DNA of 63,856 nucleotides, filler included, from Folioceros fuciformis (Eukaryota): the NCBI GenBank assembly GCA_049999805.1. It is 6 parts of 6 records of this genome, joined end to end, with 100 filler letters (N's around TTAATTAATTAA, not from the genome) between each part and the next. Parts side by side here need not be neighbours in the genome. Positions count along the whole stretch, not along the records: positions 31,270 to 41,066 come from JBNGIO010004169.1; 5 more parts are not named here. One strand, written 5' to 3'. Numbering within the stretch: the stretch's first letter is position 1; every line of letters starts with the position of its first letter. Positions 23,909 through 56,611 of the stretch are shown here, piece after piece. A program made the position numbers and the translations under genes. The notes under the pieces are model-generated. The model did not search any database. It saw nothing but the letters and a program-made list of their open reading frames with translations, and had not been told where the DNA came from.

Positions 23909-23921
23909 ATATATATATATA

Positions 23922-26900: not shown

Positions 26901-27159
26901 AGCTTTCAAACATTACCAACACTATGTAATCATGGTCAACTTAGATGCAAAAGTTGTCATTGCATGGACAAGTATGAAAAATTTCATGTGTTGTCAACAC
27001 TTGGGAAAATACTTTCAACAACTTGTGGAAGAACTATTCTCCCTATTAAGCACATCATTATGTTGAATCCAAATGCTAGTATATTAGCCCAATCCTTCTT
27101 GTTAGAACTTTGCACACTCTCATGCTGCTATTGCTATGGTCATGTATGTATGGACATAT

Positions 27160-27190
<31 letters not shown>

Positions 27191-30100
27191 ACATTTGATC
27201 CATAAAATAATATTTACGTTAGATGAGTTATTTGATGTACAATTCACACCTTTTCACCTTCAACTAAAGCATGAAGGATTGCAACCCTCAAAATATTGTT
27301 TTTCTACTATTTTCCTTCAACTTTTGAATAGAAACATGGAGTTTATAATAAACAAAGAAAACAAATCGGATTATTTTTCTCACATGTCACATAAAAATAA
27401 TAATAATAAAAATACAAATAGAGAAGAAGAAGAAGAAGAAGAAGAAGAAGATGATGATGATGATCCAATCCACAATTGTACTTTACATAGATGGATTCAT
27501 ATTGGACTTCAATTTAAAACCTTAAAAAATTTTATGAATTTGTGTCCCAAACAAGGAGATGCTGTAAAAAGTGTGCTTGCAACATGTACCCCTGCAATAA
27601 CTATGATGTTTGAGATGCTCACAAAGCTTGGATGCCCAAGTACATGGAGCATGGCACACATCTTAGTACTACAAGAACTTCTCTCAATGTTAAGTGTCAT
27701 TTGTCACAATGCAATTAATCAAAACCACTTGCTTCTACATGAGTGTATGGAAATTGAAGATTTCATTTGGCAACTAGTCATGGACAAGTCCCAAAATTGG
27801 CATTGTATTAAAAGATTCACAAATTGGACCTTCTTAAATGCGTGTCAATATTGCTTTAAAGCCCTTATGGAGAATCATCATGAAAGTTTGAGCAAGCACT
27901 TACTAATATGTCATACTTGTAATAATGTAGTAAGAAAATTAAACTCATCTACTCAAGCTGAAGCCACATCATTCCAAGGTTTGTTAATATTGAGGCTAGT
28001 ACTGCTTAAGTTTTTTCAGCTTCTAGTTGCTTTGTTACAAAGACGAGTTGATAATCACAAAAATATTACTTCGGGTGAGGACCTATTTCTAAATATTTCA
28101 GACATCATTACAACAACATTTGAATTTTTGATGGACCCAATGCATGGTATCTTGATGAATTGCATTAGAAATCTTTGTAGCCTGCTACATGAAATTACTC
28201 CACATGAAAATCAATGTTGCTCAACCTCCTCTTCTCGATTGCATACAACGTATGTGCAATGCAATGTAGACAAAATCTCCACAAGGCTTTCAAATGGATG
28301 TGAGAATTCCAAGTGCATCAATAGTAAACATGTATCTAGTAAGCATGATTTATCAAGTTATAATAACAACTTTTTTTTTTCTTCTTCTAAAAACTTAAAT
28401 AATATTATTAATGCACATAAAACCCTCTATAAGCTCTTTAAGGAAAATAAATAGTTCTAATAAATTGAGAAAAAAAAAACAACAACTAAAGAAAGAAAGA
28501 AAGAAGATATGAGGAATTTGAATATTTTCTCCAATTTTAATTCATCATTTTTGTTATCATTTTGCAAGGAACAACAAGAGATATAGTGTGCAAATATTGT
28601 TGTGCCTCAACTTCATTCCTTCGTGGCTTGTTCATACATGTGCAAAAAGAGTGTATGCATCTTCTTATAAACATCTTTAGCATAAATATTTCCAGTACCT
28701 CATATCAAAGTTTCAACACCGAGACTACTGAGACTGAAATAATGGAGAAGACTCCATTTTTCAAAAGCACTTACCTTAATCCATTTATGGATCAAGTCTT
28801 TGTTTGCTTTAAACAATTATACAATAAAGATCTTGGCCTTGAGGATCAACTGCAATCAAAATTTCCTAATAATGGGTTAGTTTTTTTATGCCAAAAAATA
28901 CATTTTTATTTATTATTACTATTTTCGGGTAGAACCTACATAATGTAGTACATGAATGGGGTAACACACAAAGAATGCATGAATCCATGTCACATGTCAC
29001 ATAATAATACAACACTCTCGTTATAAATGCCAGTGATATATTAACATGTCTCAAGGAGGATGAGCTTTCAGATTTATGTAAAATTTATGCAAGTGTGCTC
29101 TTGACTTTAGCACAAAATCAAACAGAAGAAATAGGCAACCAATTTCAAAAAATTAAAACTATAGAGTTTCTTGTTAAAGAAATAAGTTTGGAGTATGAAG
29201 ATTCTAGATTAGTTTCTATGAAATCAGAAATAGATGATAATGCGAATCCTGATAACAACACAAAACGAAATGTAGAACAATACAATAACCCTAAACTTTC
29301 AAACAAGGATAGTAATTCAAACAATCAACTTAATGTACATGGTACGTGCAATGAATGTGTTGGAGAGAAGGAACTGAGAACACATACATACATACATACA
29401 TACATACATGCATGCATACATACATACATACATACATACATACATACATACATACATACATNNNNNNNNNNNNNNNNNNNNNNNNNNNNNNNNNNNNNNN
29501 NNNNNNNNNNNNNNNNNNNNNNNNNNNNNNNNNNNNNNNNNNNNNNNNNNNNNNNNNNNNNATACATACATACATACATACATGCATACATACATACATA
29601 CATGAGAAACTAAGGCATGTGATTTTGGTACAGAACAAAATCTACACCTTTACCATTCTTCTTCAAGATCTCCAAGTGTTGAGCACATGTCAAGGAATAT
29701 GAGTATGGAAAAATTGGATTGTAATGTGAAGGAGAAAATAAAAGATGCTAGTTTCTGTATGTATAAAGGACAGAATCAATCAATCCCAAGAAGAATCCGA
29801 AGTAAGTGTCAAGGAGAGCATGTTTGTAAGAAGATATTGCAGTTATTTTATTGCAGTGCAGTGATTTCTCATTGGTTTGTTAACATGCTGCTAGAAAATT
29901 AGGGGCATCAAATCTTTGTCAAAGAATCATTAAGAAGGGAACTTCAATATACGAATATGTTCTAAACAAGTTGTACAATTTAAAAGCCACAAAACCAAAA
30001 ATTTATGTACAAGAGGATAACAAAATTTTGGATCATCCTTCATTTAGAGCTAGAGCAATTAAAAACAACATTAAATTTGAAGACCTAAATGCACGACAAT

Positions 30101-31269: not shown

Positions 31270-33027
31270 CGAGAGGGGAGTGTGTTCCCTTCTTTCTTTT
31301 CTTTGGGGTTAGTCTAATGACTCTTGCCGGGTAGGAGGAGTCAGTAGGGAAGTGTAGAAGGTAGTGGTGTCGTTGCTGGTTGCTGGTAGTTGCTGGTGTT
31401 GGTGCTGGAGTGAGAGAGTGAGTGAAGTGAGTGAGGGACGTCGCAGATCTAAGAGGTTAGGGTCGTTGTAGTGACTGGAGTGAGTTTGTGGGCACAGAGA
31501 GAGGTGCAGCTGACCGCTGGACAGCGAGGCTGTCCTACGCCTCATCGGAGCTGGACAAGAGCCCTCGAATCCAGCATCGAGTCGATCAAGTCCGACCCTC
31601 CATCCACAGCAGCAAGGAACCCCATCGCTCCTTCGTGGGAACGAAACCCAATGTCTCAACGACAGTGGGATAAGTGTGGCCACTAAAGGTGGAACCCGTT
31701 GGCAATTAGTGCCCAGGGTTTTCCCTCCACATACAACCTATCTGATAAAGTGATGCTTGATCTCAATATGCTTTGTTCTAGAGTGGAGGACTAGATTCTG
31801 GGCCAGCGCAATGGCCGACTGGTTATCACTCAGCAACGAGGTAGGTGCTGATTGTGTTTCTCCTAGTGAGCCCAATAACTCTCTCCCATGCAAGATGTCT
31901 TGTGCTGCCGTCGTTGCAGCAATGTACTCAGCTTCGGTGGAGGAGAGGTACTACGGGTTTCTTCTTACTGTGCCATGAGATTATTGTGGCTTGATGCTTG
32001 TCCTTTCCTAGCATCAGACAGTTGGCTAAGATTGAGCGTCGGATGTCACTATTAGCAGCCCAGTCTACGTCACAGAAGCATGTTAGGAGCAGGTTTGTAG
32101 GTCGTTGTTTCTATAGTAGCCCAAGCTTCGGGGTGCCTCCAAGATAGCGCATGCATCTTTGTACAGCCATCTTTGCATCAGGTGAGCCTGTAGGAGGAGG
32201 GAGTCATTCACTTTGGGAGTCAGTCTATCTCTTCGTGAGCTCTTGGAGGTCCTCTCTTCATGAGCTCTTGTGGTTTGTCCCTGCTTGGTTTAGGACCTGT
32301 AGTGTGTTGCCGGCTGTGCAACGTCTGGTAGGATCGCAAGCCGCGTGTTGCCGGCTGTACAATGTCTGGTAAGATCGCGGGCAACGTGTTGCCGATTGTA
32401 TAATGTCTGGTAGGATCACAAGGTGTAATGACCAGGGTGTAGGGGCTTGCCCCTAGCTCTTGATTGTAAAGGATGTGTCTTTCTCTCGACCTGACCACTC
32501 TTGTTCCTTGCTTGGACAAGTGCTGTAGGCCGGCCATGTTTCATGGAGTCTGGTAAGGTTGTGGGGGGGAGATACCCGAGAGGGGAGTGTGTTCCCTTCT
32601 TTCTTTTCTTTGGGGTTAGTCTAGTGACTCTTGCCGGGTAGGAGGAGTCAGTAGGGAAGTGTAGAAGGTAGTGGTGTCATTGTTAGTTGTTGGTGTTGGT
32701 GCTGGAGTGAGAGTGAGTGAAGTGAGTGAGGGAAGTCGTAGATCTAAGAGGTTAGGGTCGTTGTAGTGACTGGAGTGAGTTTGTGGGCACCGAGAGGGGT
32801 GCAGCTGACCGTCGGATAGCGAGGCCTGTCCTACGCATGATCGGAGCTGGAGGGGAGCCCTCGAATCCATCATCGAGTCGATCAAGTCCGACCCTCCATC
32901 CACAGCAGCAAGGAACCCCATCGCTCCTTCATGGGAACGAAACCCAATGTCTCAACGACAATGGGATAAGTGTGGTCACTAAAGGTGGAACCCGTTGGCA
33001 ATCAGTGCCTGGGGTTTTGCCTCCACA
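31270..33027 (-). mobile_element. Two ~465-bp LTRs (31270-31731, left end cut; 32560-33027) around an ~830-bp internal region with a decayed copia RNase H
   Basis: The two LTRs are direct repeats, and the complete copy has TGTGG...CCACA termini. The internal minus strand reads STEAEYIAA..SDNQSAIALAQN..HSRTKHIEIKHHFIR. A ~41-bp tandem repeat x3 lies at ~32300-32420. Confidence 0.8.
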
Positions 33028-33179
33028 ATAGGCCTCTTAGAAAATAGGTGGTATTTGTTTTTTTGGAGTTTTGATAGGATTCCTTGGAGAGGTAATTAGG
33101 AAACTATGTTAAATAAGGCTAGATTAAATAGGATGATCAAGAGATAGTGGTGCAGTTTAGAAAGTCAATAATCGTCTAG

Positions 33180-36100
33180 GTTACCCGTGGCCGTGGAAAA
33201 TGTGAAGTAGGGGGTAGGGTGTGCCCGTGGAGAGGGGCGCCGGCGTGTGTGGAACCCTAAGTCGGGCATGTGAGGGTGAGTTGGGGCCTCGGGAGCATGC
33301 GGAAGGCGGTTGGGCATAGGCATGGAGGTAGGGTGCCTAGGCCTGCCCTGGCCTCCGGCCAAATGGCCGGGGCTGAGGATCTTGGCCGGTAGGCGGGCCG
33401 GCCTACTGCTGGGATGGATCGGGGCGACGGCGAGGGGAGTCGGGCAAGCGGGCAGGCTGTTTGGCCAGATCCAGGCCGGGCTAGCCAGAGGGCGAGTCCA
33501 GGCATGCGAGCCGATTGGTAGGGGCCCTACCAGATCCGGCTGGCTTCCCAGCTGGATCTAGCCAGCCAACGGGCTGGCCAAGCCACGGGCAGCAGCGGCC
33601 GTGGATGGCGTGCGACCGGATGGCGGGTTGGATCGATCGGTCGGCGGGCTGGGTTGATACGGGCCGGCTAGCAGGTAAGGCCCAGGAGGGGCAGGCCGGG
33701 GGAACAGAACGGGCGGCTGGTCAGGCGGATCGTGGTAGGTGGGCTTGGCCGGATCGTCATGCGGCCGTTGGCTGGCTGCAGTAGTAGATCGGTTTGCAGG
33801 CTGGCGGGTTGGATTTAGCCAGCCAGGGGACCGGCCTGGCTGTAGCTAGAGGCGGCCAGGCAGATAGCCCAAGGGCTAGCAGGGACCAGGCGCTGGCCGG
33901 TGAGGCAGGAAGCCAGAGGTGGCGCTGGATCCAGGCCAGACGAGCCTTGGGCTGATCAAAGCGGTAATGGCTAGCAGGTGAGTTTGAGGCGGATGAAGGC
34001 GGCCAATGGGCTAGGGAGATCCTGGCCGAGGGGGAGTCCAGGCCAGGAGGGATCCTGGCGGGTGGCGGGCTACTGAAGAGCTTAGTTTGCAGCCTAGCCC
34101 GACCGGGCTGCTGGGAAGCAGGCAGGCCGGCTTGGAGGCTCCTGGATTGGTCAGCAACAGGCGGGGCGGATCGAAGCTGATTGGGACCAGGGCTGGATCC
34201 GAAGGCTGGCAAGCGTCCCAGCAGCAGGATCTCACGCAGCGGTTGGCTGGGTGGGATCATGGCAAGTAGGCAGACCCATGACGTGCGGAATCGGGCTCAG
34301 CGGGATTGAAGCCGGTAGGAGGCCCAATGGTAGTCGGATCCAGGCCAGGCGGCTATGGGCTTCGGGGTGTTTCGGGCTGTGGCCGATCGGCCAGAGCCCA
34401 GTAGATCGGGCTGCAGGCAGCCAATAGCGGCAATGGATGGCATGCGGCTAGGTGGCGGGCAAAGTCGATTAGGCAGCAAAGCGGCCGGGGAAGGACTCGA
34501 GAGCCGGGCAGTGTCTGGTTGCAGAAACCCAAGCAGCCAAGTAGGCTGGCTTCCGGCCTCCAAGCAAACGAAACCAGCAGCTGGCCAAGCCGGGCCGGCT
34601 GGCTGCTTGGCTGGATTTGGAAGGCAGGAGGCTGGTGTGTGGCCTCGGTGCAAGCGGCTTGGCTGGCGCTGAAGGCTGGCTGCAGGCACGAGGGGCAGCA
34701 GGTAGCCGGGCCCGTCAGCAGCCAAGCAGCCGGCTCAGCGGCTGGCTGGCTTGCTGGATTAGGAGGCAAGCAGGCAGACAGCCAGACAGGCTGCGGGACC
34801 TACGCGCCAAGCTCAGAGCCAGCACAGGGATGGCTGGGCGGTAGGGCTGGTCGGAGTTGGAGCTAGGCGAGCGGCGCTAGATCTAGGCCAGGCGGGCTAC
34901 AAGCAGATCATGGCAGATTGGCGAGCACCCGGGCAGGCCAGTGAGCGGTGCCAAATCTGGGCGGCCGGGGTTGGATCTGGAAGCCAGGCACCAGCCTGGC
35001 TGCAGGACCCAAGCAGAGGTCTGGTGGTGGACTCCAAGCAGCGGAGGTGGCGAATCTAGCAACCAGCCAGGCCGGCTGGCGGCTGGCCGGGTGGGATCCC
35101 GCTAGGCAGACTAGGCCGGCTTGGCAGGCAAGACAGGCTGTAGGTGACGAGCTGGCATCCAGGCTGTGGCTGCAGGAGACGGATCCAAGCAGGCCGGGAG
35201 GCGCCAGATCCAGGCACTCGCCGGATCCAGGCAAGCTGGCTAAACCGTGGCAAGGCAACCAAGCAGTAGCAGTAGACCGACAGTAGGCAGGATGGCCAAA
35301 TCGGCGGCTAGCAGGAGGGTGGCATCGGATCTGCGGGAGATCTTTCAGGAGTTGTTCGAAGAAGGAGCCCAAGCTGCCAGGTGCTGGGAGGGTGAAGCCA
35401 GTAGTCAGCCAGCCGGGCATGTTGGTTGCCTGGCTGAATCCGGAGGTCGGTTGGCGACCACTAGCCAGTTGACCTGGGCAAGCAGGCGACGATCCACCCT
35501 AGGCTGGCCAGCCAGGACGGGGGGGAAACAGGTTGGTTGGATGAGGAGGGACGATCGAGGGACAAGCAGCAAGAGCTGGATCGGAGGCCACTGTGGAGGA
35601 AATCCTGGCCGGCAGGGCGAGGTGCAGGGGGCATTGCCAGAGCCAGGTTCCTGCCTAGCGGCTGGCGGTTGGCTTAGCGGGATCTGGGGGGGCTAGATGC
35701 CTGGCCAGATCTGTGAGGACGGAAGGCCAGTGCGCGGCCTCTCAGCGGCTAGCGAGTTGACATCCTGGCAGGTAAGGGCCAGATCCGGGCCGAGGTCCTG
35801 GCTGGACCCAGCAGGTGAGGTGGTTGCAGGGCAAAAGGGGGAAGTCGGATGGTGGGTGGACGGCGCTCAGGGATGGCCGATCCGGACCGGTAGCCTGGTT
35901 GGCGGCCCGGAGGGATGGCAGGCTGGTAGGCCGGATCCAAGCCGCTGCCCGGGATGTGCACCCTGGCAGTTGGCTGAATCGTGGCCAGGCCTACCAAGCG
36001 GGGAGCAACGTGTGGCCCACGTGAGACGGCTGGGGGCTGGATTCGGGAGCCAGGCAGCAGCCAGGCTGCAGGATCCTAAGCAGGAAAGGCAGCGGGATTT

Positions 36101-36300
36101 GGGCTGTGGTCTCGGGTGGATCCGGCTCCGGCTGACTGCAGATGCAAGGGAAGNNNNNNNNNNTGGTCTCGGGTGGATCCGGCTCCGGCTGACTGCAGAT
36201 GCAAGGGAAGATGCCCAGGCCCTGGTCTCGGGTGGATCCGGCTCCGGCTGACAACAGATGCAAGGGAAGATGCCCAGGCCCTGGCTGATGGTTAGTTGTC
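33180..36300. repeat. Very GC-rich low-complexity tract, probably TE-derived; 59-bp tandem repeat at ~36105-36285
   Basis: The tract is dense in GGCTGG/GGCCGG/GGATCC/CTAGCC words, and no ORF has recognisable homology. TGGTCTCGGGTGGATCCGGCTCCGGCTGAC occurs three times. Confidence 0.65.
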
Positions 36301-36667
36301 TAGGGACGGGCTACAGGGCACTAGATGAGTAGGTCTACCGAGTCATGGGCCTTGGCCAGCAGAATGGAGGAAAGGATATGAAGACAGTGTGGTCTCTAAA
36401 GGGGTGCAGATGATCTAAGGGAAAGGAGAGGATCGGAGGGGGGAAGAGAGTGTCGAGAGGCACTTGAGAGTTTTGGTAGTTTTGAGGGGTTGATTAATTT
36501 TGATAAAAGCAACCAGGGCACAAGTCAAGGTTAGGGCTAGGTCAGGGTTAGCATTAGGTTGGAGTCAGGTTTAGGGTTTTGACAAGTGGAGGGTTCTGTC
36601 GAAGGCGGGTTGACCTGGTTAGATAGTGATAGGGGTTCCTGGCCAAGGGGGGATAAGAGGCCAGGCG

Positions 36668-38629
36668 TGTCATTGAGTGGGGGGTTTGTGAATCGTTAAC
36701 CATGGACAGCTTATGCTAGCTATTGAACGGGTTATGCTAATATACATTTAATTTTGCAACCTTTGGATATTAGGGTTTAGTATAAAAACACATCTGAGAT
36801 ACTTTGCTAATTAATTACTTTTGTTTGTGAGACTCGTGCCATTGCTCATTAGGCTCTCGTCTTACACAACGTGCATAAACGATGCCCGTTTGTTGATATG
36901 GTATCAGAGCCCAATGCTCTGCTATCTGAACGAGTTCTGTGAGAATGCCGAGATCAAGGAATCCTAACAGAGATCAAAATAGGAGAAGTCACGGTGGTCG
37001 TGGGGGCAGACTTCCTCAACATCAATCACGTGGACTTTCTCTGGAAGAAGCAATAGATCTCTACGAACAGGATTACTCAAATCTTTGGCTACGGAAATTT
37101 GTAGATAAACATTCAAGGTGTGGATTACATAAACCACCCTTTCAGCAGCCTAACTGGAATAAAGCAATTGATGCTGAATTCAGAGCTCGCTGTTTGAGGA
37201 GAGGTGTGAACCCTGACGGCTTCAAATACAAGCCCCAGAAGAAATCCACGCCTGCAATTTCCAGACAAACAGATTTTTGTCACCCACCAAGCAACAGCCA
37301 GAGCATTGCTGACAGATCTCTAGCTGCAGCTATCAGAGTAGAGAAATCCTTATCTGTTGTCATCTCAAGACAAGAGCTCTTTAGGAACAGAGTGAAAGAA
37401 TTGGACCTGGCCTTGGATTTTGCCGCCCAATCAATCCTGGATACAAGACAAGACATTAAGAACCTTTCTTACCAGTTTCAGAACATGAGTTTGAAGATGG
37501 AATTGGAGAAACACTTCACCAGTGTGCAGGATTTGCCACAAGTTCGCTGATTTTCCTGCTTCCGCTGTGAGGGAGCCTGGAGCGCCAGGCACAGGCACAA
37601 TGTTGGTGCCAGATACAAAGAGGTGCATGCATTGTCGTGACCTTTCGTCTTTCAGCCCTTTCCTACATGCCATTTGTTAGCCAACAGATGCACCTGTTCA
37701 CAAGAAGGTGGCATGGTAGTTAGGGTTCGGAATTCTTGATGCAAGCATGTGTTTTTTGAAACACTAACCTAAAAATTAATAGGCATAGCGTTTCGTTTTA
37801 TCTCATGTACCGTTTTGTAAGCTAACCATGCATGCAGTGAAGAAGTCGAAGGGGAAATTAGTTTAGAAAGCCTCAGGTACACAGCACTTGTTGCCTTCCC
37901 AGCTAAGCTCCCCCTTCAGCCCTTCCCTACACACAAATGTTAGCTAGCTGTACACCCTTGTAAGTGAGACATAGATACTTACCTGGATTGTCAGAGCCAT
38001 AGCTCCCGTACATCTTGGTAGATTCTAATGTCCTCAAATCCCATAGATGCATTGTTAGCATCTCTCGTACAGCAATTTCAGTCTTTAGGCATACAGCCAC
38101 CCCTTGCACAAATATACAAGATGGCTACCACCACTTCTCCAGTATTCACAACAGATTTGAAGGAGAAAGACCGTCTCAACGGCCAGAACTACAAAACCTG
38201 GCGTGTGAGAATGAAGAGTATCTTGCTGGCTCGTAGTGTTTGGTCCATAGTTGATAAAACATATGCTAAACCGAATCCCAATGCTACTCCAGCACCTACA
38301 GCAAATGAAATTGCTAAGTGGGATCAGCATAATGAAATAGCAGTTGCTCTTCTAATAAATGGGATAGATGCAGATCTTGTGCCAGATGTAGAACCCTTGA
38401 CAGAGGCTTCTGCAATTTGGGCACAACTAGAGAAAACATATTAGCAGCAGAACATGATGTCTCTGTGTGCAGTGCAAACAGAATTTTTCTTGTTGCGCAT
38501 GAAAGAGGGAGAGAAAGTGTCGGCACATACCAGTAAGTTCCGACGTCTTAGAGCTCAGATTACGTTGTTGACTGGTGAGAAAATACCAGAAACACAAGCA
38601 GTTGCAAAGCTCCTCTCTAGTTTACCTCC
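36668..38629 (+). mobile_element. Copia element B: 5' LTR (~36668-36898), PBS, extra ORF0, gag (38121-38629, truncated by another copia)
   Basis: TATAAAAA occurs at 36781 and the Met-i PBS TGGTATCAGAGC at 36899-36910. Gag reads MATTTSPVFTTDLKEKDRLNGQNYKTWRVRM..EFFLLRMKEGEKVSAH..KLLSSLP, with an in-frame TAG at 38442. The LTR start is uncertain. Confidence 0.85.
36945..37550 (+). CDS. ORF0: intact 201-aa extra ORF between PBS and gag (Arg/Gly-rich N-terminus, C-terminal coiled coil)
   Basis: The ATG lies about 35 nt after the PBS and the frame has no stops. VEKSLSVVISRQELFRNRV is homologous to the ORF at 53904-54297. Confidence 0.7.
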   Translation: MPRSRNPNRDQNRRSHGGRGGRLPQHQSRGLSLEEAIDLYEQDYSNLWLRKFVDKHSRCGLHKPPFQQPNWNKAIDAEFRARCLRRGVNPDGFKYKPQKKSTPAISRQTDFCHPPSNSQSIADRSLAAAIRVEKSLSVVISRQELFRNRVKELDLALDFAAQSILDTRQDIKNLSYQFQNMSLKMELEKHFTSVQDLPQVR

Positions 38630-41066
38630 TAAAGGAACGCTCTAGGAGCTACATAGTGAAGGAGAGGAGAGGAGGAGGCAAGGAGGAGAGGAGAAAGAGA
38701 GGTCACACTCTCACAATAGAGTCCCACATACAAGGGAGCTCAAGGGGGTATTTATACCCTCTAGAAGAGCTCCCTAGGAAGCTTCACAAGAAGCCCACAA
38801 GAAGCTGCACAAGAAGCTTCCTAGAGATTAGCTTAAGCTAATCTCAACTAATGATACTTAACTAGACACTAATCTTAGACTAAACACATTAGTCTAGGCA
38901 CATTGGGCTTTAATAACCCTACAACCGCCCCCTTAAAGGCCAATTACCTTGATAGGAGAGTGATCTACCTCATGCCCATGAGTATTCGAGCTTGTGCGAA
39001 TTGCTCCGAAGAGAGCCCCTTGGTGAGAACATCTGCAGGGTTCTGACTGGTGTGAACTTTGACAAGTTGTACCCTCTTGTCTTCCAACACCTCTGGAATG
39101 AAGTGATACTTCACTTCCACATGTTTGGTCTTCACATGAAACACTGGATTCTTTGCCAATTGGATAGCACTCTGGCTATCACAATGCAACACTGGCATCT
39201 CAACCTTGATCCCCAAATCTCCCACTAAACGAGCAAGCCACATGGCTTCCTTGCACGCCTCAGCCGCTGCAACATACTCGGCCTCTGTGGTAGATAGCGT
39301 TATGCACGATTGCAAACGCGATCGCCATGAAACTACCCCTCCAGTGCACATGAAGACATAACCTGATGTGGACCTCCTTTTGTCCATATCCCCTGCATAA
39401 TCAGCATCCGTATAGCCCACGACAGATGCATCTTCACTACCAAAACATAAGCACAAAGCTTTTGTACCATTCAAGTACCTCATAACTCCTTTCATTGCCT
39501 CCCAAAGCTTCCTGCTAGGGTTTGACATAAACCTTCTAACCACTCCCACTGCAAAGGCAATGTCAGGACGTGTAGCAATCATTGCATACATCAAACTCCC
39601 TACAGCTGATGAGTATGGAACCTTCTCCATTTCAGCTTTGTCCTCCGCAGAGCTTGGGCAATCCTTGCTCGACAGTTTCACATATGGAGGCAACGGAGTA
39701 CTTAGTATCTTCCCCTTCTCCATATTGAAGCGTTGAAGCACCTTGTTAATGTATTCAGTCTGAGACAAGTACAGCAAACGCTTCTATCTGTCTCGACGAA
39801 TACGCATGCGGGGAATATGGCTTGCCTCTCCCAAGTCTGTCATGTCAAAGCGACCATTCAACTTTGACTTCAACGTTGAAATCTCATCACTATTAGTCCC
39901 AGCAATTAGCATATCATCCACATAGAGGACCAGAATGAGCAAGCTTCCATCCTTAGCTTGCTTCGTATAGAGGCAATGATCCTCATCGCTACGCTTGTAG
40001 CCTTGAGAAAGCATAAATGAGTGGAACTTTAAATACCACTCCCTGGGTGCCTGCTTCAAACCATAAAGGCTCTTCTTTAACCTGCACACCAGATTCTCTT
40101 TGCCCTTCTCAATGAAACCCTCTGGTTGTTGCATGAATACCTCTTCCTGGAGATCACCATGCAAAAATGCCGACTTCACATCCATCTGGACAAGTTCCAT
40201 GTCGAGCCTCGCAACCACACCAAGAACACATCGCAAGGTGGTCATTTTGACAACCGGTGAGAAAATCTCATCAAAGTCAATACCTTGCTGTTGCTTAAAA
40301 CCGTTCACAACCAATCGTGCCTTGTACTTGGGTTTGCCATAATGGGGTATGTCCTTCATCTTATACACCCATTTGCATGGCAACGCCTTTTTGCCCTTAG
40401 GTAACCGAACCAATTCCCAAGTTTGGTTCTTGTGGAGTGAATCCATTTGCGACTGCATTGCCTTCTCCCACTTGTCCTTGTCAGTCACTGACATGGCCTC
40501 TTGGTAACAAGAGGGCTCCCCACAATTCGTCAGCATGACATAATCAAGAGATGCAACATACCTGTCAGGAGGACGTGAAATCCTTCCTGACCTGCGGAGT
40601 ACTGGCGCCTCGACCGGAGCTGGTTGCACTCTCTCCTCTTGTACAAGTGGAGGAACTTGTTCCTGCACATCACGACGTTCAACCTGCGCAGGACGGTCAA
40701 ATCTGTCTTCTTGGAAGACCACCCGTCGCACCTCCATAGTTGGAGGAGGTTTCTTGTGCATCTTGGTCTCGTTGAAGAATACGTCATTGCTGCGAACCAT
40801 CCTCTTGGCTGCTGGATCCCATAGACGGTATCCCATCTCACCAGATTCACCATAGCCAAGAAAAATACATTTCTTGGACTTGGGTGCCAACTTGTCCCGA
40901 AACTCCTTCGGAACATGGTAGTATGCCTCGCAGCCAAATACTCGTAGATGCTTATATGACGGCTGGTTTCCAGACCACATCTCCTCTGGAACCTATTCAT
41001 CCACAGCCCTATTAGGAGATCTGTTAATAAGATGCACCGCAGTAGCCACTGCTTCTGCCCAAAATC
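38630..41066 (-). mobile_element. Ty1/copia 3' half: integrase end, RT, RNase H, PPT and 3' LTR
   Basis: Motifs HLRVFGCEAY, YKARLV, QMDVKSAFLHG, LKKSLYGLKQAPR, LYVDDML, GYTDADYAGD, STTEAEY and CDSQSAI, with one premature TAG at 39784. PPT AAGGGGGCGGT precedes the LTR start TGTAGGG at 38923, and TATAAATA lies at ~38750. Confidence 0.95.
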
Positions 41067-42409
41067 NNNNNNNNNNNNNNNNNNNNNNNNNNNNNNNNNN
41101 NNNNNNNNNNTTAATTAATTAANNNNNNNNNNNNNNNNNNNNNNNNNNNNNNNNNNNNNNNNNNNNCTTTTATACTGCACAAGGAAGGGGGCATTACTGA
41201 TGTGGTATATTCTTTGCCAATACTATTTTAAATGCATGAAAGACAATTTCTCAATTTATTTTATTTATGATTTTTTATATTACTAGAATTATTGATATGG
41301 CATATTTGTTGCAAATGATGTTTAACAAGCGCGCAATAACATCCCCTTGAGAAGAGTGGGAAAGTCCACCCAATTCGAAGCAAAAGCAAGAGCAAATATA
41401 AAACACCAAACACAAGCACTAGCTTGTAAGTAGTTTCCCTTCTCTCCTAGGAGGACTTAGACTAGATTGTACTCTCACTGGTGCTCTTTATTCTAGATTC
41501 ACGAGTCAACAAGAACATAACCCAGAGGGTTAGAGAGAACTCCATATTTTCATCTAAGCTAGGATCTTAGCTCTCTATCCGCTTCACTTCCTCCACAAGA
41601 GCTCTCTTACAGGGTTTACACCTTGGGTGTTCACAACCTAAGCAAATAATACTCTCATTGGATGTTCATAGCCTAAGCATACAATGCTCTCAAGGCATGA
41701 GGGATATCAATCTCGTTGTCCTTTAACTTCAAGCTAGGTCCCTTTTATACTCATGCGAAGGGTTCAGATCCTGAAAGACAAGATCCTTTGGAGCACGACA
41801 TAGGTAATTGAGTTTAAGATCCTAGGATATGAAAAAGAACCAGCGTCTGCACCCACCTTATTGTGGAGGCTATTTACAAGCACATGACAAGGTAAGATAT
41901 TATTGTTCTTTTTGGAAGTAAATGCGAACATAGTAGTGACTCTTCTTAGCTTTGGTGTGAAAGCTGCATGTGCATTCTTCTCACTCTCATTGAACATAAT
42001 TGTTGTGATTTTGTACTGCATTTGCCTTTCCTACTGCGCTTGGGGTTTAAACACCACATCGTCTCCTTGCGATTCAATATGCTCATAGTGAGGTTACCCT
42101 TCTAAGCCAAGTTCTACTATCACCCCCTTCCTAGGCCCGCATACTTATCCATTATGTTACAAACTTTGTTACTACGGCCCTCCTTCTCGATTTGTCTATC
42201 GAGAACAAGGCCTTTTGGGAGTAAAGAGGCATCTCAAACACACGACAGCTAGGCTAGGGTTTCATCGTGTCGATTCGAGCTAGTGTCGTTTTCCAATACG
42301 ACATAAGCAAGCATTCTAGCTAATCTAATAATTTAACCAAAAGAGTCAAGTCGTAATAATTTAACCAAAAGAGTCAAGTCGTTGAATCTTTGACGTGTCT
42401 TTGCTCCTT

Positions 42410-44280
42410 CTTTTTTTTTGCAAAGAAAAAAAATCTAATTATTCACAGCCTAGGCTGCAGCATGGGTACAACAGTTACACATGCAACTAAATGAGGAGTT
42501 AGCATGTAAGCTAATTCTATGCTACAAAAACAAGCACAACTAATCTATCCTGCGGGCTAGAGATATCCGGACCTTATGTGGCTTGCCTGCCCCAAGGGCT
42601 GGAGTGGTCCCATTGGCCATTTTGTTGGAGGAATCCTGCTAGTTTCCACTCTTTCCCTCTAAACTTGGTGTGGCGGAAGTTTGGATGCTCTCCGTGACCA
42701 CAAGGACCTGTTCCCAAATGCGCCATAACAGAGCTTTCACAGATACCGGATCGCTTCCACCATAGACCATCGCTGTCCAGTTTTGCCACAGAGAGAAAAG
42801 AGACAAGGACCAAACCACTCCCCACCATTGGTACTGAAGTAGTGGCCCCCCCGATTGCTCATCTAGTCCGAATAAGGCAATTTGCTCGGTAACCAAGATG
42901 GGGAGAAGCCTCTGCAACCACCAGCCAACTTCGTTCCAAATACCTTGCGCATAGTCGCACTGATAGAAAATATATTGGCTTTTATGAGGGGCGGCAATAC
43001 TGCATAGCCTGCAACGATCCTCCCCCGTAGCCACCAATAATCCGTCCCAGCGATCTGCATTAAGCAACCAAGCTTGAAAGAAACACTAGATGGTTACCCT
43101 CACCTTGAGGGGGATCCCTAAGGTCGACCACATGAGTTTGATCGTGGCCCTTTGCCGACGCTGGGAAAGCCCCAACCTAGAGGCCAGCCGACTTCGCCGA
43201 AGAGATTTTGTGCGTGCACCAGCCGGAGGTAATTGACAGCCGACGTAAAATTGAAGAGTGATTTCGCGATTGCCTGCTTACTTCCTAAGCTCCCAGGCCA
43301 CATATAGAGGTTGGGACACATCGCTAACTCCCAATTCTCCTTCATGCGAAACCAACACCTTACTCGATTTTGTTGCAAGGTTTGCTTCCTGTTGCCTTGT
43401 TCTTCTTGAGTAAGCCAGTGGCCCGCCCACCTAGCCCTGTAGAGCGTAGTAATCCCTCTTAGGCCTATTCCACCAATCGCCCCTTCCTCTCTACCTCTCT
43501 CTTCCAAAAACCCCTCTGCATTCATAGTCCTATAAGAGAGATTCCCTTTGTCATCTGTCAGTGAAGACACAAGCACTGCTCTGTCAAAGTCTGGTAGGGG
43601 TACATCCTCCTCCTAGTCGGAACCACTTGACCTATCTTCCATGGGGCACGCCCCCCACATATTAATGTCCACCCAGGCTTGCTGTAGTAGTGCTTGCTTC
43701 ACCTCCTCTGCCATCCCTTCTTGTAGCCAAGAAAGCATTAGTCTCACATGTCGAACCAGAACCCCAAACTCATCTCGCGCCTCCTCCGTTGTTTTCCAGC
43801 CATCCTCTATTCAGTTCCACAAGTGGCCGAGTTGCACAATGCCTCTTCTACTAGCAAAACCAAAGATTTGGGACCTGTATACCCGGGAAAGGAAGTCTTG
43901 TGACCACAACCCCTTAAAGCCTTGGAGAGGAAGGCCCAGCACATCATCCCTATTCCTAGGCTTGGCTAAGAGAAAGAAGGTTTTAACCTCCAAGAAGCTG
44001 CGCCTTATAGAGGCAAATAGAGGGCAGCAGNNNNNNNNNNNNNNNNNNNNNNNNNNNNNNNNNNNNNNNNNNNNNNNNNNNNNNNNNNNNNNNNNNNNNN
44101 NNNNNNNNNNNNNNNNNNNNNNNNNNNNNNAACCAACTTTTCCAAGGGTATCCCATTGGGCCCGCTGCCTTTAAAACCCATTGTGCATGTAGAACCTTCA
44201 TTTTGCTCGTGGGGTCCATCAACCCAAGCCCACCCCAGTGTCTACTCTGAATAATATGTTGGCACGCCACCTTATGTTCT
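42410..44280 (-). mobile_element. Degenerate L1-clade LINE, 3' part of ORF2 with a possible poly(A) tail
   Basis: Motifs HKVACQHIIQSRHWGGLGLMDP and zf-RVT-like CRLC..YIFYQCDYAQGIW. A T-run at 42410-42419 could be the tail. Confidence 0.75.
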
Positions 44281-44288
44281 TTTCACAA

Positions 44289-47200
44289 TAGTATCAAAGC
44301 AACTGATCCTCGAATCAAGATGTTGGATGTTGGAAGTTATGGATCATTGCTAAAGAAATGAAGATGACTGTTTTCATCCTCAAAGGCACACCATAAACCC
44401 CAACTTGTTCATGAAATAAGGAATGACAAGGAGACGAGGCAATAGCAGACAACGTGTAGCCCTCCCTATCTCAACCATGAGGGAACAATTCCACGAGATT
44501 CCAATTGAAAATTGGGTCCTGCCACATCGCAATCAAAGCAAGACATACATTCACCACAATTGGGTGCTCTTGCCTAGAGATCAAAACAGGAGAATTTTGC
44601 AAGAACAAAAACTTGTCAGCTTGTGAAGGGATTTCATGATCACCAGATAGAGCACAAGCAACATCATTGTGATCAACTTAACCCAATGCTACATACCTTG
44701 CAAGTTGGTGCTGCAGTTGGTGTTCTGCAAATCATAATCACCACACTCCACTTGCAAGCATCAAAAGGGCAGGTATTAGTGCACTTCCACGGTAATGAAT
44801 TCATCCACCACAAATGTTCACAATGCTACAGGAACTTTAAGGAGTGAGATCGATTCAATGAGACTAAGTATAATACTTGGGCAATTCGCATGAAGTCTGC
44901 CCTTAAATTGAAGGAGGTCTGGAAATATGTGAATGGAGCCTTACCTCGTCCCACACTCACTATTGCCACAATCTCAACGCTAGCCATTACACAAGTTGAC
45001 ATTGATAAATGGGATCGTGGAGATAGAACAACAGAGCATCTGAGCATCAATGGTCTGGATGAAAGCATGATGGATCATGTTGAGGGCTATGACACATCCC
45101 AAGAAATTTGGGATGGTCTAGTTATATAAGGCACAGAGTGTTAAGTCCCTTGTGGAAGTGAGGATGACTTTCTTCTCACTTTGATTGAAAGAGAAGGAAG
45201 GTGTTTCAACGTACCTTGGCAAGCTTAGGTATCTCGTTTACTGCTCTCGTTCCTTCGCTCTAAGATAACAAAGCTTGATGCCGCTACACAACTTTTGGCT
45301 GGCCTACCTCCAACATAGCAAGGGTTCGTTTCACAGTAAAACGGGCCCCTTTAGACAACTTCAACAGCTGTTGTAGTAGGTGGATCCTCAACACTAATGG
45401 TTGTAGGTCTATTAGCTTCTATGCTGCAAGAGGAAACTATGAGAAGATAGAGCTCAACCTCATCTTCTGTTGTGACTCCGGCCAAGGTGCTAGTGGCTGA
45501 AAGAAAGCCTAAATGGAACAAAAAGGAGGGCCTATATACAACAACACGAGCAAAGGTGATAGGGGAAAAAAGAAAGAAGATTGCAATTGGTGTTCAATAG
45601 AAGGGCATTGGAAGTGCGATTGCCATAAGAAAAAGGCAGGTGAACCACACAAGAACAACCCCCTTGAGACACATGTTGCTAAATCTTTAACAAGGAATGT
45701 ACCTTTAGTAATGACAGTTTGTTTCCTTTCTACTCACATATCACCTTCTTTGTGGTACTTGGGCTTTGGAGCCTCTACTAATATATGCAACTAGACATGA
45801 GGTGTTTCAGTACATTTGCTATTGATTCCACATGGCAAGTTGCTATAGTAGCTGATGATAGGTCAATTGTAGTGAAAAGGGACAATGGTCCTTTACACTT
45901 TTATAGGAACAGAAATACACCTACAAGATGTTCTCTTTGTACCTGATATGACCAAGAACCTTGTCTCAGTCAAGGCTCTTACAACCCACGACGATATTAC
46001 TTTCTTGTTTACGAGAAAGGGTTGCAAAATATTCTATGGTCACCATAGAATATTTTCAATTATACCTTTCTCGTATTCTTCAATTCACATTCTTCAATTG
46101 TATCATGGTGATACAATTGAGAGTTACTCACCTCAGAGTTTTTGGTTGTATTGCTTCGGTGCTTATTACCCTTCAGGACAAGCCTAAGCTAGTGGATAGA
46201 GCCACTCGAAGTATATTTGTTGGTAATGAAGAGCAGATGAAGGCGTACAATCTATACATGCCCTCTACACGCCAATTGACATATGCAAGGAGTGTTGTCT
46301 TCAACGAAGCTCTAGTGCTCACATGGGTAGTGGGAGCTTCTTTTGCAAGTGGAGAACACCCACCTCAAGATTCAACTTTGGACTCAGATATAGTGATGGG
46401 AGGTGGCATTGTTGACTCCCACACATTTCCTGATTAGCCATAGAGTTGAATTTAGAAATCCATCATATGAATGTTTGCACCAAGTTTTTATGTGGAGAAC
46501 TTAAGGAGGAGATATATATGAGGCAGCCCTTGGGCTATGAAGATATTAACCTAGAGCTCCTCTGCAAGTTGCTTAACTGTCTATAGGGCTTAAAACAAAG
46601 TGCTAATATTTGGCATCATAAGTGTGATGGTCGTCTCAAATTCATGGGCTTCATTCAAAGCCATGCTGATAGTCATGGTTATTATCTTGCTGGCGGCTCC
46701 GACTTTACTATTAAATTAGCCTTGTATGTTGATGACGTATGCATGTTTGGCATAAATATAATCCTAATTAACCATGGTAAGGACATGTTATGGGTGGAAT
46801 TCGATATGAAGGATATTGGTGTTCTTCAATATTGTCTTGGAATTCAAATTCTTGGTGATCAACCTCATGGCTAGATTTTTATGCCTCAACAAAAATATGT
46901 AAGAGAAACTCTAACTCATTTTCATATTCAATCCGCTAGGCCTGTTACTGTTGGATGAGGATTCGCTTACCCTTTAAATAATAATTGTATTAAATAATAA
47001 GTGTATTAGGGTTAGGCGAGTAGATATGAATAGTTTCATTTATTTTTAGGGCACGTTGACGGTTGGTAGTTGGTAACTGCCGTGTCATGTGAAAGACACA
47101 CGAACGTCGTTTCACCATCTAATTCTATTCTTAATTCTATCGCTTCCTTGCCTACATGTCTCTAGCGCGCGTGCGCCTACTACAATCTACTTGCTGTTCA

Positions 47201-48035
47201 TAAACGACAGTTACGACTCTAGGAGCAGCTGATATTTAGTTATCTTCAGTGAACTGCCCACAATATGATGCTAAGCATGCCGATGCCAATATGCTTACTA
47301 TCCCTTATGTTGGATGTATGGGTTGTCTTCTCTATTTAGTTAATTGGACTAATTCGGATATTATGTATGTTGTTAATGTTATTGCTCAATACCTTCAAAA
47401 CCTAGGTAGGATACATTGGGTAGCAACTGCTATTTGGTTATCTTCAGTTGACTCCTACAATATGATGCTGAGCGTGCAGATATGTTTGCTATCCCTTATG
47501 TTGCATGTGTGGGTTGTCTTCTCATCTGACTAATTGGACTAGGCTGGAGATTATGTATGCTGTTAATGTTACTTCTCAATACCTTTAGAACCCAGGCATG
47601 GTACATTGGCTAGTAGTGAAGAGGATCCTAAGGTATTTGAGCAGTACTTCAACATATGGCATTTGCAATATTGCCAAAAGTCAAAACAAATTCGAACTAG
47701 CAGGATTGGTAGATGAAGATGGGCCTTTGACTCCAATATTGTTTTATGTTATTTGGAGCTTCCGTAAGTTGGCGATGTAAGAAGCAAACAAGTCTTGCCT
47801 TGAGATCAGCAGAGGTTGAATATAAATATCATCTCTTTACTTGCCTCTTACCGAGATATGTAAGGAGATTGAGTGGGAGCGTTCACTTCTTAGTGATATT
47901 AAGCGTCCTCAACCTCAATCTACATTACTTAATTGTGATAATATGTTGGCTATAGGTTTACTCGCTTATCCTCGTTATCATGCTTGCACTAAATATATTG
48001 AGCTATATCACCATATTGATGATATAGCTCGGTAG
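44289..48035 (+). mobile_element. Copia element C, heavily degenerate, same lineage as A and B
   Basis: It has a decayed PBS TAGTATCAAAGC, gag DRFNETKYNTWAIRMKSAL, knuckle CNWCSIEGHWKCDCHKKKAGEP, VLFVPDMTKNLVSV, HLRVFGC, LALYVDDV and CDNMLAIGL..HACTKYIEL. An RT segment of about 200 bp is duplicated in tandem at 47230-47620. Confidence 0.88.
46949..47209 (+). mobile_element. Solo LTR (261 bp) with 5-bp TSD GTTAC, inserted in the RT of element C
   Basis: GTTAC-TGTTG...CGACA-GTTAC. Confidence 0.9.
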
Positions 48036-50007
48036 GGTGATTATAGGTGAATATGCTTGGGCTGCTAGAGCATTGCGCCCAGAGCTGGCTGCATTTGCAA
48101 CTGAGGACACCATTGCTGCACTTCGTGCCCTTCATCTAGAACCTCATGACACTATACCACAAGATCTTCTGGACCACACGGTCGAGGAGCCTTTTTGCTT
48201 GGATAGGGTTGTTTTTGGGCATGCACTCTCTTCTGCGCCGCGACTTTCTTTAGGAGTTTGTCTGGCATAGTTTATGACCATTTTCGAAATTATTTTTCTC
48301 CTGAGGATCCCTCAAGTGGTTTTTCGGAGCTTTATACATTAGCAGCTACTGTGGCTAGGGGCGAAGTTCTCACTTGAATCTCTCAAGTTTTGGCGGCTAG
48401 TAGGCTACTTGCATTGAAAAAGCCCACCTTAGGAGTGCGCCCTATTGCTGTGGGGGAGGTATTTTTGCGCCTTATTAGCCGAAGTATCGCAATTCAACTT
48501 TGGGAGTACTTCTAAGCGCATCTTGCACCCCACCAATTTGGGTTTCCTATTGTAGGTGGGTGTGAGTCTGCCGCTCTCGGCATCTAGGTGGCCCTTGCGT
48601 TACCTCCTCACTGGGTAGGTTTGCAGGTTGATATTGAAAATGCTTTCAACACCATCTCTAGGGTCGCCATCTTCTCGGAGCTCAAGAGTGCAGGAGGTCA
48701 ATTGGCAAGTCTTATCCCTTCTGTTCGCTCCTTCTATGGCTCGCCATCCAAGCTCTGCTACCAACACGGCCCGACTATTGAGGGGATCTCAGTTTTTGAT
48801 TCAACAACAGGCACAAGGCAAGGGGATAGGCTGGGGGGTGCTCTTTTTGCAATGGTGCATTTTTGTGCATTGTCCTCTACTGCCTTAGCATTTCGGGAAT
48901 GCCTTTTCCCTTCCATGGCTGATGACACTCATATTCTTGGGCAAGGAGTCACAGTCAAAGTAGCATTTGATTTCTTCTCATCATAGCTCTCCAAGGTGGG
49001 GTTGCGGGTCAAGCTATCTAAATGCAGGGTTTGGTCCCCTTCAAGCATCACTCCCCCCCTTCAATATTTGGGGGGGGGGGATAACACCCCCTCGCAGGGA
49101 CTTCAAGTCTTGGGTGTGCCTGTGGGACCTCCTGATTTTGTTCATAGGTTTGTGGATGAAGCGTTGGATGAAGATTTGGCTCATATCATGGATCACAAAT
49201 CGGTGATCCTCATATTGCGTTTGGTATCCTTTCTTCTTGTGTTGCATAGCAACCAGGTTATCTCACTAGAACTGTTGCGCCTTCTCCATTTTTCTTATCA
49301 AGTCTCAGGAAGTTTGATAATCAAGTTATGCAGGCTCTTGGGAACATCATAGGTTCAGGCACCTACAAGTGTGCTGTCGGTGATTTGGCTCGCAAGCAGG
49401 CTTCTTTGCCAGTCGTCTTTGGAGGGGTTGGTCTTTTGGCCATGGAGGCCTCTTCCCCAACTACCTTTCTCGGCAGCTGGGCCCTCTCGGCTCCAATTTT
49501 GGCCTCTCTTTTTTTGCTACAAGATTCCCCTGTTCTTGAAAGTTTTATTTCACCTGTTGAGGAGAGCGTTTTCTCTTTACAAGTGTCTCTTAGGCAAGCG
49601 AGGGACTCTCTACCTTTGGAGGCTCGTGAGGCTCTACCTCCTTTCACCTCTTTTTCTAGGGAAGGGTTGAAGGGTCTCCAAGCCTCCCTCTTAGAAAAGC
49701 AATATGGCCAAGCACTAAGAGCCCTTCTTTCATACTCATCCATCCCTAGGTCTTCTCGAGCTCGTATTCGATCTTGTTCAGGTAAAGGAGCTGGCTCTTG
49801 GCTTTTAGCTCGACCTTGCATCCAGACATTTCGAATCGCACCAGCAACATTCGCCACCACGATGAGATTTCGCTTAGGTTTGGCCCACCCCTTGGCTTTT
49901 TCTCTCTCCACATGCAGTTGTGGGGTTGCCATTGTCGATACAGGGTCCCATTTGGCACGTTGTCCCGTTGGGGGGCACCACATTGCCACTCATGATGCAG
50001 TTCGGGA
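48036..50007 (+). mobile_element. CRE-clade (restriction-like endonuclease type) non-LTR retrotransposon fragment
   Basis: Motifs GVRPIAVGEVFLRLISR, LAPHQFG..GGCE, VDIENAFNTISR, GTRQGDRLG, MADDTHI, LGVPVG, LPVVFGGVGL, GAGSWL, FATTMRFRLG and CSCG-x7-HLARC-x8-HDAVRD. It carries stops and frameshifts, and an LTR insertion has removed the endonuclease part. Confidence 0.82.
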
Positions 50008-50248
50008 TGACAGGTTATATTTAATTTTCTTTTTATTAGTTCAGGTTAGGGTTAGGGGTTAGGTGACGGTTACAATCAATAACCGTCACCTGGTCAAGTT
50101 CATATGACATGTATCGTGACATTCTATTCAATTCCCTTCTTTATCTACACGCGAACATATCATGGTATCAGAGCGTGCGGCGATCCATGTCGTGCGTTTA
50201 ACTCCCAGCGCACGAGCAGCCTGGATCGGCTGTGTGCACTTCGGTGCA
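50008..50248 (+). mobile_element. Short 5' LTR (50008-50162) plus Met-i PBS of an LTR element inserted into the CRE element
   Basis: TGA...TCA termini are followed immediately by TGGTATCAGAGC (50163-50174). Confidence 0.8.
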
Positions 50249-54624: not shown

Positions 54625-54889
54625 CTAACTAGCCCGTATCCCGGCGTCATGCATAGTTTAGTTTAGGTCGTTAAGCGAATAGTTACACATATACATATAT
54701 TTATTATATAAGTGCACGAACAGGTGCACAGTCGTAACGTTAACAGTCAACCGCCGTACCGGTTCACATGACACGGCCTCTTATGGCCTTACACCCACAT
54801 TCACAAGTGGCTATTCTGATTTTCTAAGCTTCCTCTCTACGCCGTGTGCTACCGATCCTACGCTACGAATCCCAGTACTAAAACGACAA

Positions 54890-56529: not shown

Positions 56530-56611
56530 GGGAGCGAATCATAGTACTACAACGATAATAAGGGGGCCACACTTCCCCCTTATTATCGTTGCAGTACTAT
56601 GATTTGCTCCC
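56530..56611. mobile_element. 82-bp foldback mini-element with a possible AAGG TSD
   Basis: 37-bp arms (35/37 paired) enclose an 8-nt loop, and AAGG flanks both sides. Confidence 0.75.

Follow-up and report, generated by a model that had tools for sequence, protein, structure and literature searches.

What is a long open reading frame (ORF) doing between the site where the primer binds (PBS) and gag of a Ty1/copia retrotransposon? The question is raised by two elements, here called A and B, in a stretch of 63,856 nucleotides (nt) from Folioceros fuciformis (GCA_049999805.1), referred to below as the window, in which six scaffolds are joined end to end by joiners of the form N44-TTAATTAATTAA-N44. 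Element B occupies the plus strand of the scaffold at 31270-41066; the scaffold at 50349-57124 carries element A on its minus strand. In both of them gag is preceded by a separate sense ORF, which we call ORF0 (ORF0_A and ORF0_B where the two must be told apart). We put the probability that ORF0 is a lineage-specific 5' extra ORF of one Ty1/copia lineage comprising A and B at roughly 50%, and its product is probably a fast-evolving accessory protein.

Element B presents the arrangement in its clearest form. The order given in a first-pass annotation of the window, from the long terminal repeat (LTR) through a Met-i PBS, an intact ORF of 201 amino acids (aa) and a spacer of about 570 bp to gag, is confirmed. 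The 3' part of the 5' LTR occupies 36653-36898 (plus strand, like all features of B); its 5' boundary is uncertain, with weak collinear matches to the LTR of A from 36653, and two contig records from paralogous copies span 36696-36898 and end exactly ahead of the PBS. The PBS itself, at 36899-36910, is the exact 12-mer TGGTATCAGAGC, which we take to be of the tRNA-iMet 3'-end type; at up to one mismatch the window holds three matches to this 12-mer, against 0.41 expected by chance. The PBS of most copia groups is described in Neumann 2019 (PMC6317226) as complementary to the 3' end of tRNA-Met. The ATG of ORF0 stands 34 nt past the PBS and opens an intact frame of 201 codons plus stop (36945-37550). 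It is followed by a spacer without a long frame (37551-38027), which contains 11 ATGs and seven stops in the frame that ORF0 and gag share, and which measures 477 nt to the start of the gag frame at 38028 or 570 nt to the conserved gag start MATTTSPVFT at 38121. The N-terminal part of gag (38028-38645) carries DUF4219 and Retrotran_gag_2, the latter recognised by Pfam in two pieces (3.1e-12 and 1.2e-06). By these gag domains and its tRNA-Met-type PBS element B fits Ty1/copia; its own pol is absent from the scaffold.

Element A is Ty1/copia by its gag domains and by the order of its pol domains, in which integrase stands ahead of RVT_2 (Pol_BBD 98-180, gag_pre-integrs 214-290, rve 308-404, SH3 465-531 and RVT_2 725-827). 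All its features lie on the minus strand. The 5' LTR (54398-54784, outer boundary uncertain) abuts an assembly gap of 100 N (54298-54397), which probably hides both the PBS and the start of ORF0, because the LTRs end alike (...GTTGATA ahead of the PBS of B, ...TTTAGATA ahead of the gap of A) and the gap begins where the PBS of B begins. The visible part of ORF0 consists of the C-terminal 130 codons plus stop (54296-53904), open from the gap edge to a stop at 53904-53906. After a spacer with two ATGs (53903-53680), gag starts 225 nt (ORF start, 53679) or 339 nt (conserved MSATPAFT, 53565) downstream of ORF0. The first-pass annotation had this ORF ending about 340 bp before gag, and the 339 nt to MSATPAFT bear it out, with the amendment that the ORF is merely a fragment whose start probably falls in the gap.

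Gag and pol of element A run from 53679 to 50349, where the scaffold end cuts them. Within this stretch gag occupies 53679-52840, with Retrotran_gag_2 (Pfam, 1.4e-30) and DUF4219, and after an in-frame TAG at 52839-52837 the same frame goes on to an RGG box, a CCHC knuckle and the protease, integrase and reverse transcriptase (PR-INT-RT). This TAG (minus strand) is single and stands in the context GCT TAG CGT; it either disables the element as a mutation or serves for read-through. No direct repeat pair, and hence no LTR pair with a target-site duplication, was found on the scaffold of A or on that of B; we regard this as truncation and not as contradiction, because a nested insertion (B) and a scaffold end (A) cut the copies.

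Both ORF0 frames are longer than chance would provide. When the 1117-nt leader of B was shuffled with its dinucleotides preserved, a sense ATG ORF of at least 201 aa arose in one of 5000 shuffles (mean longest 59.6). For the visible 618-nt leader of A, at least 130 codons open from the 5' edge were seen in 17 of 5000 such shuffles, and at least 130 codons anywhere in the sense direction in 66 of 5000. Two trivial origins of the frame were considered and rejected: ORF0 as a broken extension of gag, given the seven stops that separate the two within their shared frame in B and the different frames that they occupy in A, and ORF0 as a tandem-repeat artefact, given that no tandem repeat is present in ORF0 of B (36945-37550).

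The gags of A and B are related and diverged, as the first-pass annotation had put it, with 45% identity in a two-sequence alignment and 41% over 180 aa in tblastn. Despite this 45% identity, ORF0 has the same position, strand and order in both elements. The statement that there is no obvious DNA similarity also held: the only significant DNA match is the 17-mer TTAGGGTTTAGTATAAA at the TATA box of the LTR, exact in both (36770-36786, plus strand, in B; 54543-54559, minus strand, in A), for which the window contains two matches at up to two mismatches against 0.01 expected. At the protein level, Smith-Waterman alignment of ORF0_A with ORF0_B gave a score of 44 against 29.7±4.9, over 51 columns of which 13 are identical. 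This best local alignment brings the two predicted C-terminal helices into register and includes the motifs that the first-pass annotation had singled out as shared. As for the LTRs, we also observed that within the 17-mer a telomere-repeat-like TTAGGGTTTAG adjoins the TATA box, and we presume that it is perhaps a promoter element of the telo-box type.

The two ORF0 products are predicted to resemble each other in architecture. ORF0_B is basic (35 K+R, 22 D+E), with eight K+R in its first 35 residues, including the stretch RSHGGRGGR. Its AlphaFold2 model, computed from the single sequence, has a mean predicted local distance difference test score (pLDDT) of 61.7; in it the N-terminus is disordered, residues 33-58 and 71-85 form helices, and residues 121-190 a single long one (pLDDT 78-92). 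For the visible part of ORF0_A, disorder is predicted at 1-63 and helices at 67-87 and 94-123, with a mean pLDDT of 55.4 and values of 73-88 in the helices. For the hydrophobic contrast at heptad a/d positions in the best 28-residue segment, 13 of 300 shuffles did as well as B and two of 300 as well as A. Both products are thus predicted to be built from a disordered part followed by a long C-terminal heptad helix, and an Arg-rich N-terminus with a coil, as proposed on first pass, fairly describes what is predicted.

To place this layout among other copia elements, control elements were taken from a scan of metagenome contigs with the pol of A, which gave 26 loci; from these we kept the ones that had enough sequence upstream and whose PBS showed no more than one mismatch. 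They form four families (L001/L002, L003, L004/L012 and L017/L018/L021/L022), with pol 25-51% identical to that of A. In all four, a Pfam-confirmed gag begins about 20-220 nt past the PBS, and tblastn with ORF0_A and ORF0_B against them gave no match at E<=1. The window itself offers a further comparison in element C, where a PBS-like TAGTATCAAAGC near 44283 is followed by gag from about 44780; the longest ATG ORF in this leader of about 500 nt is 67 aa. The leader of 1.1 kb in B and at least 0.7 kb in A, with its long ORF, sets the lineage apart, since the controls are without any such ORF. Two further cases among the loci were discarded. The apparently long leader of L019/L020, whose PBS-like site precedes the pol landmark by 1548 nt, belongs to a degenerate relative of L004 that has an internal insertion and gag next to the PBS, and the PBS-like site of L015 is probably spurious. 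One control deserves separate mention: L001 (3694-4160) has the pol closest to that of A (51%, best segment), and its gag is of the Retrotran_gag_3 type, missed by tblastn with the gag of A at E<=1. Neumann 2019 (PMC6317226) suspects mixing of copia gag and pol histories, which L001 fits.

If ORF0 is a gene of this lineage, its product would most likely act as a cofactor of the element RNA, a small basic protein that multimerises and binds nucleic acid. The internal region would begin with ORF0, directly behind the tRNA-iMet PBS, and continue through a non-coding spacer into gag-pol. The ORF0 product would be small and basic, with an Arg/Gly-rich, disordered N-terminal half and an amphipathic heptad helix in the C-terminal 55-70 residues. 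Scanning ribosomes would translate ORF0 because, on what is presumed to be the full-length RNA, no long frame comes before it. By its basic tail the product may bind nucleic acid and by its helix it may multimerise, and it could then assist the element RNA, whether in a chaperone role or as a cofactor of packaging or export. To arrive at gag-pol, ribosomes would need splicing, shunting or internal entry, because gag-pol lies behind ORF0 and, in B, 11 further AUGs, so that scanning cannot serve gag. A donor-like GTGAGA stands 6 nt before the ORF0 ATG of B, and the gag ATG is preceded by an acceptor-like AG at a distance of 6 nt in B and 18 nt in A; all of these are consensus strings only. Like other retrotransposon extra ORFs, ORF0 would evolve fast, so that only frame, position and architecture would be kept. 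If ORF0 was inherited from the common ancestor of A and B, then selection follows, as an open frame would not be sustained while gag diverged to 45% identity; this, the stronger argument for selection, depends on a homology of the two ORF0s that is only putative.

A considerable body of observations weighs against a conserved gene, beginning with the comparison of the two proteins. BLASTP of ORF0_A against ORF0_B returned no alignment at E<=100, and tblastn between them nothing at E<=10. The Smith-Waterman score of 44 was attained in 27 of 2000 plain shuffles and, with the hydrophobic pattern preserved, in 56 of 2000; the pair had also been chosen by eye. The similarity between A and B is therefore marginal. 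The RQExF match of the first-pass annotation is present and lies inside the best alignment, and for the same reasons it is marginal as well and in part a coiled-coil effect. Of the earlier reading, the separate long sense ORF in both elements is supported; the words "conserved" and "selected" are not. Moreover, A and B are the only two elements in hand, from a single genome.

Searches for homologues point the same way. Pfam gave no family above threshold for ORF0_B. The Foldseek check called for on first pass, run against the PDB with the ORF0_B model, yielded no usable match (best E = 2.8). By sequence, ORF0_B had one PDB match at E = 0.061 (ribosomal L29) and ORF0_A none. In the ESM Atlas ORF0_B was without a usable match, and the best values for ORF0_A, 0.82-0.84, stayed under the lead level. 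A word-indexed search of proteins of near length gave 204 candidates for ORF0_B, none at E<=0.01, and the word-indexed search with ORF0_A gave four candidates, none of them confirmed. An exhaustive phmmer search with ORF0_B against 1.84 billion representatives returned 0 matches. No third ORF0 member bridging A and B appeared in the protein or ESM Atlas searches. The gag of A fared similarly, with no match at E<=1e-5 among proteins of near length, and of the pattern matches that the gag alignment gave in scans of metagenome contigs (166) and viral contigs (88), none was confirmed.

The coding signal and the state of the two copies add to these points. A codon-usage score trained on the copia genes of the window is positive in the ORF0 frame alone, at +0.04 (B) and +0.02 (A) log-odds per codon, and gag reaches +0.19 to +0.28 per codon, so the ORF0 signal is weakly positive; the score says little, because it is much weaker than that of gag and because stops penalise the other frames. 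Upstream of the ORF0 ATG, the leader of B has three other ATGs with short frames of 4, 14 and 17 codons. Both copies are damaged, and the ORF0 start of A is hidden. Element B is a dead copy: an in-frame TAG interrupts its gag at 38442-38444, and near 38650 gag breaks off where a repeat of very high copy number is nested in it, behind which comes a copia pol on the minus strand. The k-mer depth jumps from 38582 onward, and no second LTR for B was found on the scaffold 31270-41066.

The last of these points comes from paralogous copies, whose evidence on selection is indirect; for them we used contigs from two DNA runs of one sample with the same organism label, compared with the region of element B. 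Variants from run X3 were excluded for an excess of C>T and G>A changes. Other family copies with the ORF0 region are represented by contigs at 95-98% and at 83-87% identity. Near-identical contigs differ from ORF0 in 0-5 letters per 247, and a contig of a variant at about 95% carries a net 12-letter insertion in ORF0. A 691-nt contig differs in 33 of 198 letters over 37057-37254 and in 37 of 285 over 37314-37598; in its unalignable stretches within ORF0, 79 letters replace 79, and 59 give way to 71, a net gain of 12 that keeps the frame. This gain and the 12-letter insertion of the variant may go back to one event. A neighbouring contig, which overlaps the 691-nt contig by 30 letters, differs in 23 of 215 letters of the spacer (net +5), where in addition 109 letters replace 168 (-59), and in 40 of 678 letters of gag, without any indel. 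Identity is therefore 83-87% in ORF0 against 94% in gag, and ORF0 diverges at a rate at least that of the spacer and about 2.5 times that of gag, a pattern that resembles a ratio of non-synonymous to synonymous change (dN/dS) near 1. Among the ORF0 variants listed, three of three are non-synonymous by our own reading. The claim of the first-pass annotation that ORF0 is selected is unsupported by these contigs, which differ more in ORF0 than in gag. The net length changes are 0 and +12 nt in ORF0, which keeps the frame, and +5 and -59 nt in the spacer. With regard to run X3 itself, C>T (145) and G>A (139) strongly exceed the other changes, as in a bisulfite library.

Given such divergence, ORF0 could be a relic or a chance frame, that is, a long untranslated leader whose open frames have no present function. 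This we hold to be unlikely. ORF0 diverges between paralogues no less than the non-coding spacer, the similarity of A and B is marginal, homologues were not found, the codon signal is weak, and both copies are dead. When unconstrained substitution was simulated, 7% change left an open frame in 749 of 5000 trials, and because neutral frames survive in this way, an intact ORF0 in a dead copy is mild evidence only. The same simulation left the frame open in 125 of 5000 trials at 14.5%, however, and a gag identity of 45% means a divergence far past neutral frame survival. The length tests (1/5000 and 17/5000) concern two elements and the same place in each, a heptad helix ends both frames, and the net indels of ORF0 are in frame, all of which tell against a relic.

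It is quite unlikely, in our judgement, that the A-type and B-type elements captured unrelated leader sequence independently, each from part of a host gene or of some other element. The absence of significant similarity between the two ORF0s would be explained at once. Many gains of eORFs (extra ORFs), in 45 copia and 314 gypsy groups, are inferred in Neumann 2019 (PMC6317226), and gene transduction by LTR retrotransposons is documented (PMC7264820). No donor was found, however, in Pfam, among the 1.84 billion representatives or in the rest of the window, and both captures would have to share place, strand, openness and a terminal heptad helix, with C-terminal helices that come into register in the best alignment.

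A regulatory upstream ORF (uORF), in which translating the long leader frame throttles or times gag-pol translation or RNA packaging and the peptide drifts freely, would account for the constancy of frame and position alongside a near-neutral drift of the sequence, for the three short uORFs before ORF0 and the 11 AUGs after it in the leader of B, and for a spacer in B whose predicted fold is unusually stable (minimum free energy -150.7 kcal/mol, z = -3.53, matched by none of 100 shuffles). We consider it very unlikely, as mere regulation needs neither 130-201 codons nor a disordered and heptad-helix architecture in both lineages, and the spacer of A shows no fold signal (z = -0.36). There is only a slight chance that ORF0 is a Rev-like or ORF1p-like RNA handler, an independent invention of plant copia that would decide between export or packaging and splicing of the full-length RNA, its Arg-rich tail binding the element's own unspliced RNA and its helix multimerising and bearing an export-like, leucine-rich ELDLALDF (B).

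Returning to ORF0 as a 5' extra ORF of one copia lineage, we compared it with known systems. The first-pass annotation had stated that canonical copia elements have a single ORF, that the extra ORFs of Sireviruses lie 3' of pol and that 5' extra ORFs are typical of gypsy elements, which is roughly right and leaves out the ORF0 of Tekay and Retrosat2 and the eORF-5'F class of REXdb. According to Vicient and Casacuberta 2020 (PMC7264820) and Neumann 2019 (PMC6317226), extra ORFs are known mostly 3' of pol or in Ty3/gypsy. The latter survey counted eORFs of at least 250 codons in 582 copia elements, in 45 groups, beside 314 gypsy eORF groups, and considers that eORFs were probably acquired many times. 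The 3' eORF of SIRE is the sole copia lineage trait that we found named in it. That eORF-3'F of SIRE/Sirevirus lies between pol and the 3' LTR, whereas ORF0 lies between the PBS and gag. The REXdb class eORF-5'F comprises frames of at least 250 codons, upstream of the polyprotein and outside tandem repeats (Neumann 2019, PMC6317226). ORF0 is like the REXdb eORFs in lying outside the polyprotein, in its high divergence and in being without conserved domains, and the survey asks about function just as we do here; ORF0 also has the upstream position and no tandem repeat match of eORF-5'F; with 201 codons it falls under the cut-off of 250, which is why the survey would overlook it. In our full-text literature searches no copia 5' ORF was described, and a copia eORF-5'F group in the supplementary tables of Neumann 2019 is possible.

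In the Ty3/gypsy superfamily, the ORF0 of Retrosat2, RIRE3 and RIRE8 and the 5' additional ORF (aORF) of Tekay are likewise sense ORFs between the 5' LTR/PBS and gag-pol. They too are without outside homologues and diverge far more than gag-pol; the ORF0s of Retrosat2, RIRE3 and RIRE8 are 30-34% similar, against 69-70% for ORF1 (PMC3485330). The protein of the sunflower Tekay 5' aORF is described as mostly disordered, with a few well-predicted helices and a nuclear localisation signal (PMC11728184). These elements differ in being chromoviruses with LTRs of about 3 kb and an aORF of about 400 aa, whereas here we have copia elements with a short LTR and 201 codons, and a chromodomain is not seen in the part of the pol of A that is present; the likeness is one of position and description. 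Ogre ORF1, Athila ORF1 and the Retand eORFs are alike as extra ORFs, some of them 5' of gag, and belong to the Ty3/gypsy OTA clade. Their marker domains are the plant mobile domain PF10536, Athila ORF-1 PF03078 and Transposase_28 PF04195 (PMC6317226). None of the three was found in ORF0 by Pfam at E<=1. A functional analogy may be drawn with LINE-1 ORF1p, a small, basic, nucleic-acid-binding protein that is encoded upstream of the enzymatic ORF and multimerises through a coiled coil. In ORF1p an RNA recognition motif (RRM) and a C-terminal domain come after the coil. ORF0 differs from it in that its helix is C-terminal and no domain is recognised, and there is no match in sequence or fold.

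As a whole, the window contains several copia elements and host genes of plant type (class III peroxidase, homeodomain, Dabb, GDT1 and Ctr), and Rfam gave 0 matches over its whole length. Upstream of B, the GC-rich region 35800-36650 has a 59-nt tandem repeat at 36107-36284 and higher depth and is a repeat family separate from element B; run X4 (guessed to be RNA) covers this region alone, outside B. Downstream, the repeat at 38650-38960 reaches a k-mer depth of up to about 100,000 in two DNA runs, against about 12-90 over element B, and probably represents the LTR of a copia family of great abundance, the pol of which occupies 38968-40992 (minus strand). At 50163-50174 (plus strand) the PBS 12-mer recurs exactly, about 75 nt before the end of the scaffold 41167-50248, and may mark the 5' end of a further copia element that leaves the scaffold. 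Finally, a frame of 1514 codons at 23910-28451 (plus strand), open from the very start of a scaffold with 35% GC, has no Pfam family at E<=0.1 and is much too long for chance at that GC content.

Copia elements are usually viewed as the plainest of the LTR retrotransposons, with one gag-pol frame alone. Were the ORF0s of A and B drifting relics, they would merely mark a long-leader copia family of local interest. If they are one conserved, selected gene, for which we see about even odds, then, 5' extra ORFs being known in Ty3/gypsy, what would be new is the copia host and the short length. In that case the layout with a 5' accessory gene, as in Tekay and Ogre, would have arisen in both superfamilies, the cut-off of 250 codons in the survey of Neumann 2019 would be exposed as a blind spot, and a small, tractable protein of 201 aa would be available to probe what such genes do.

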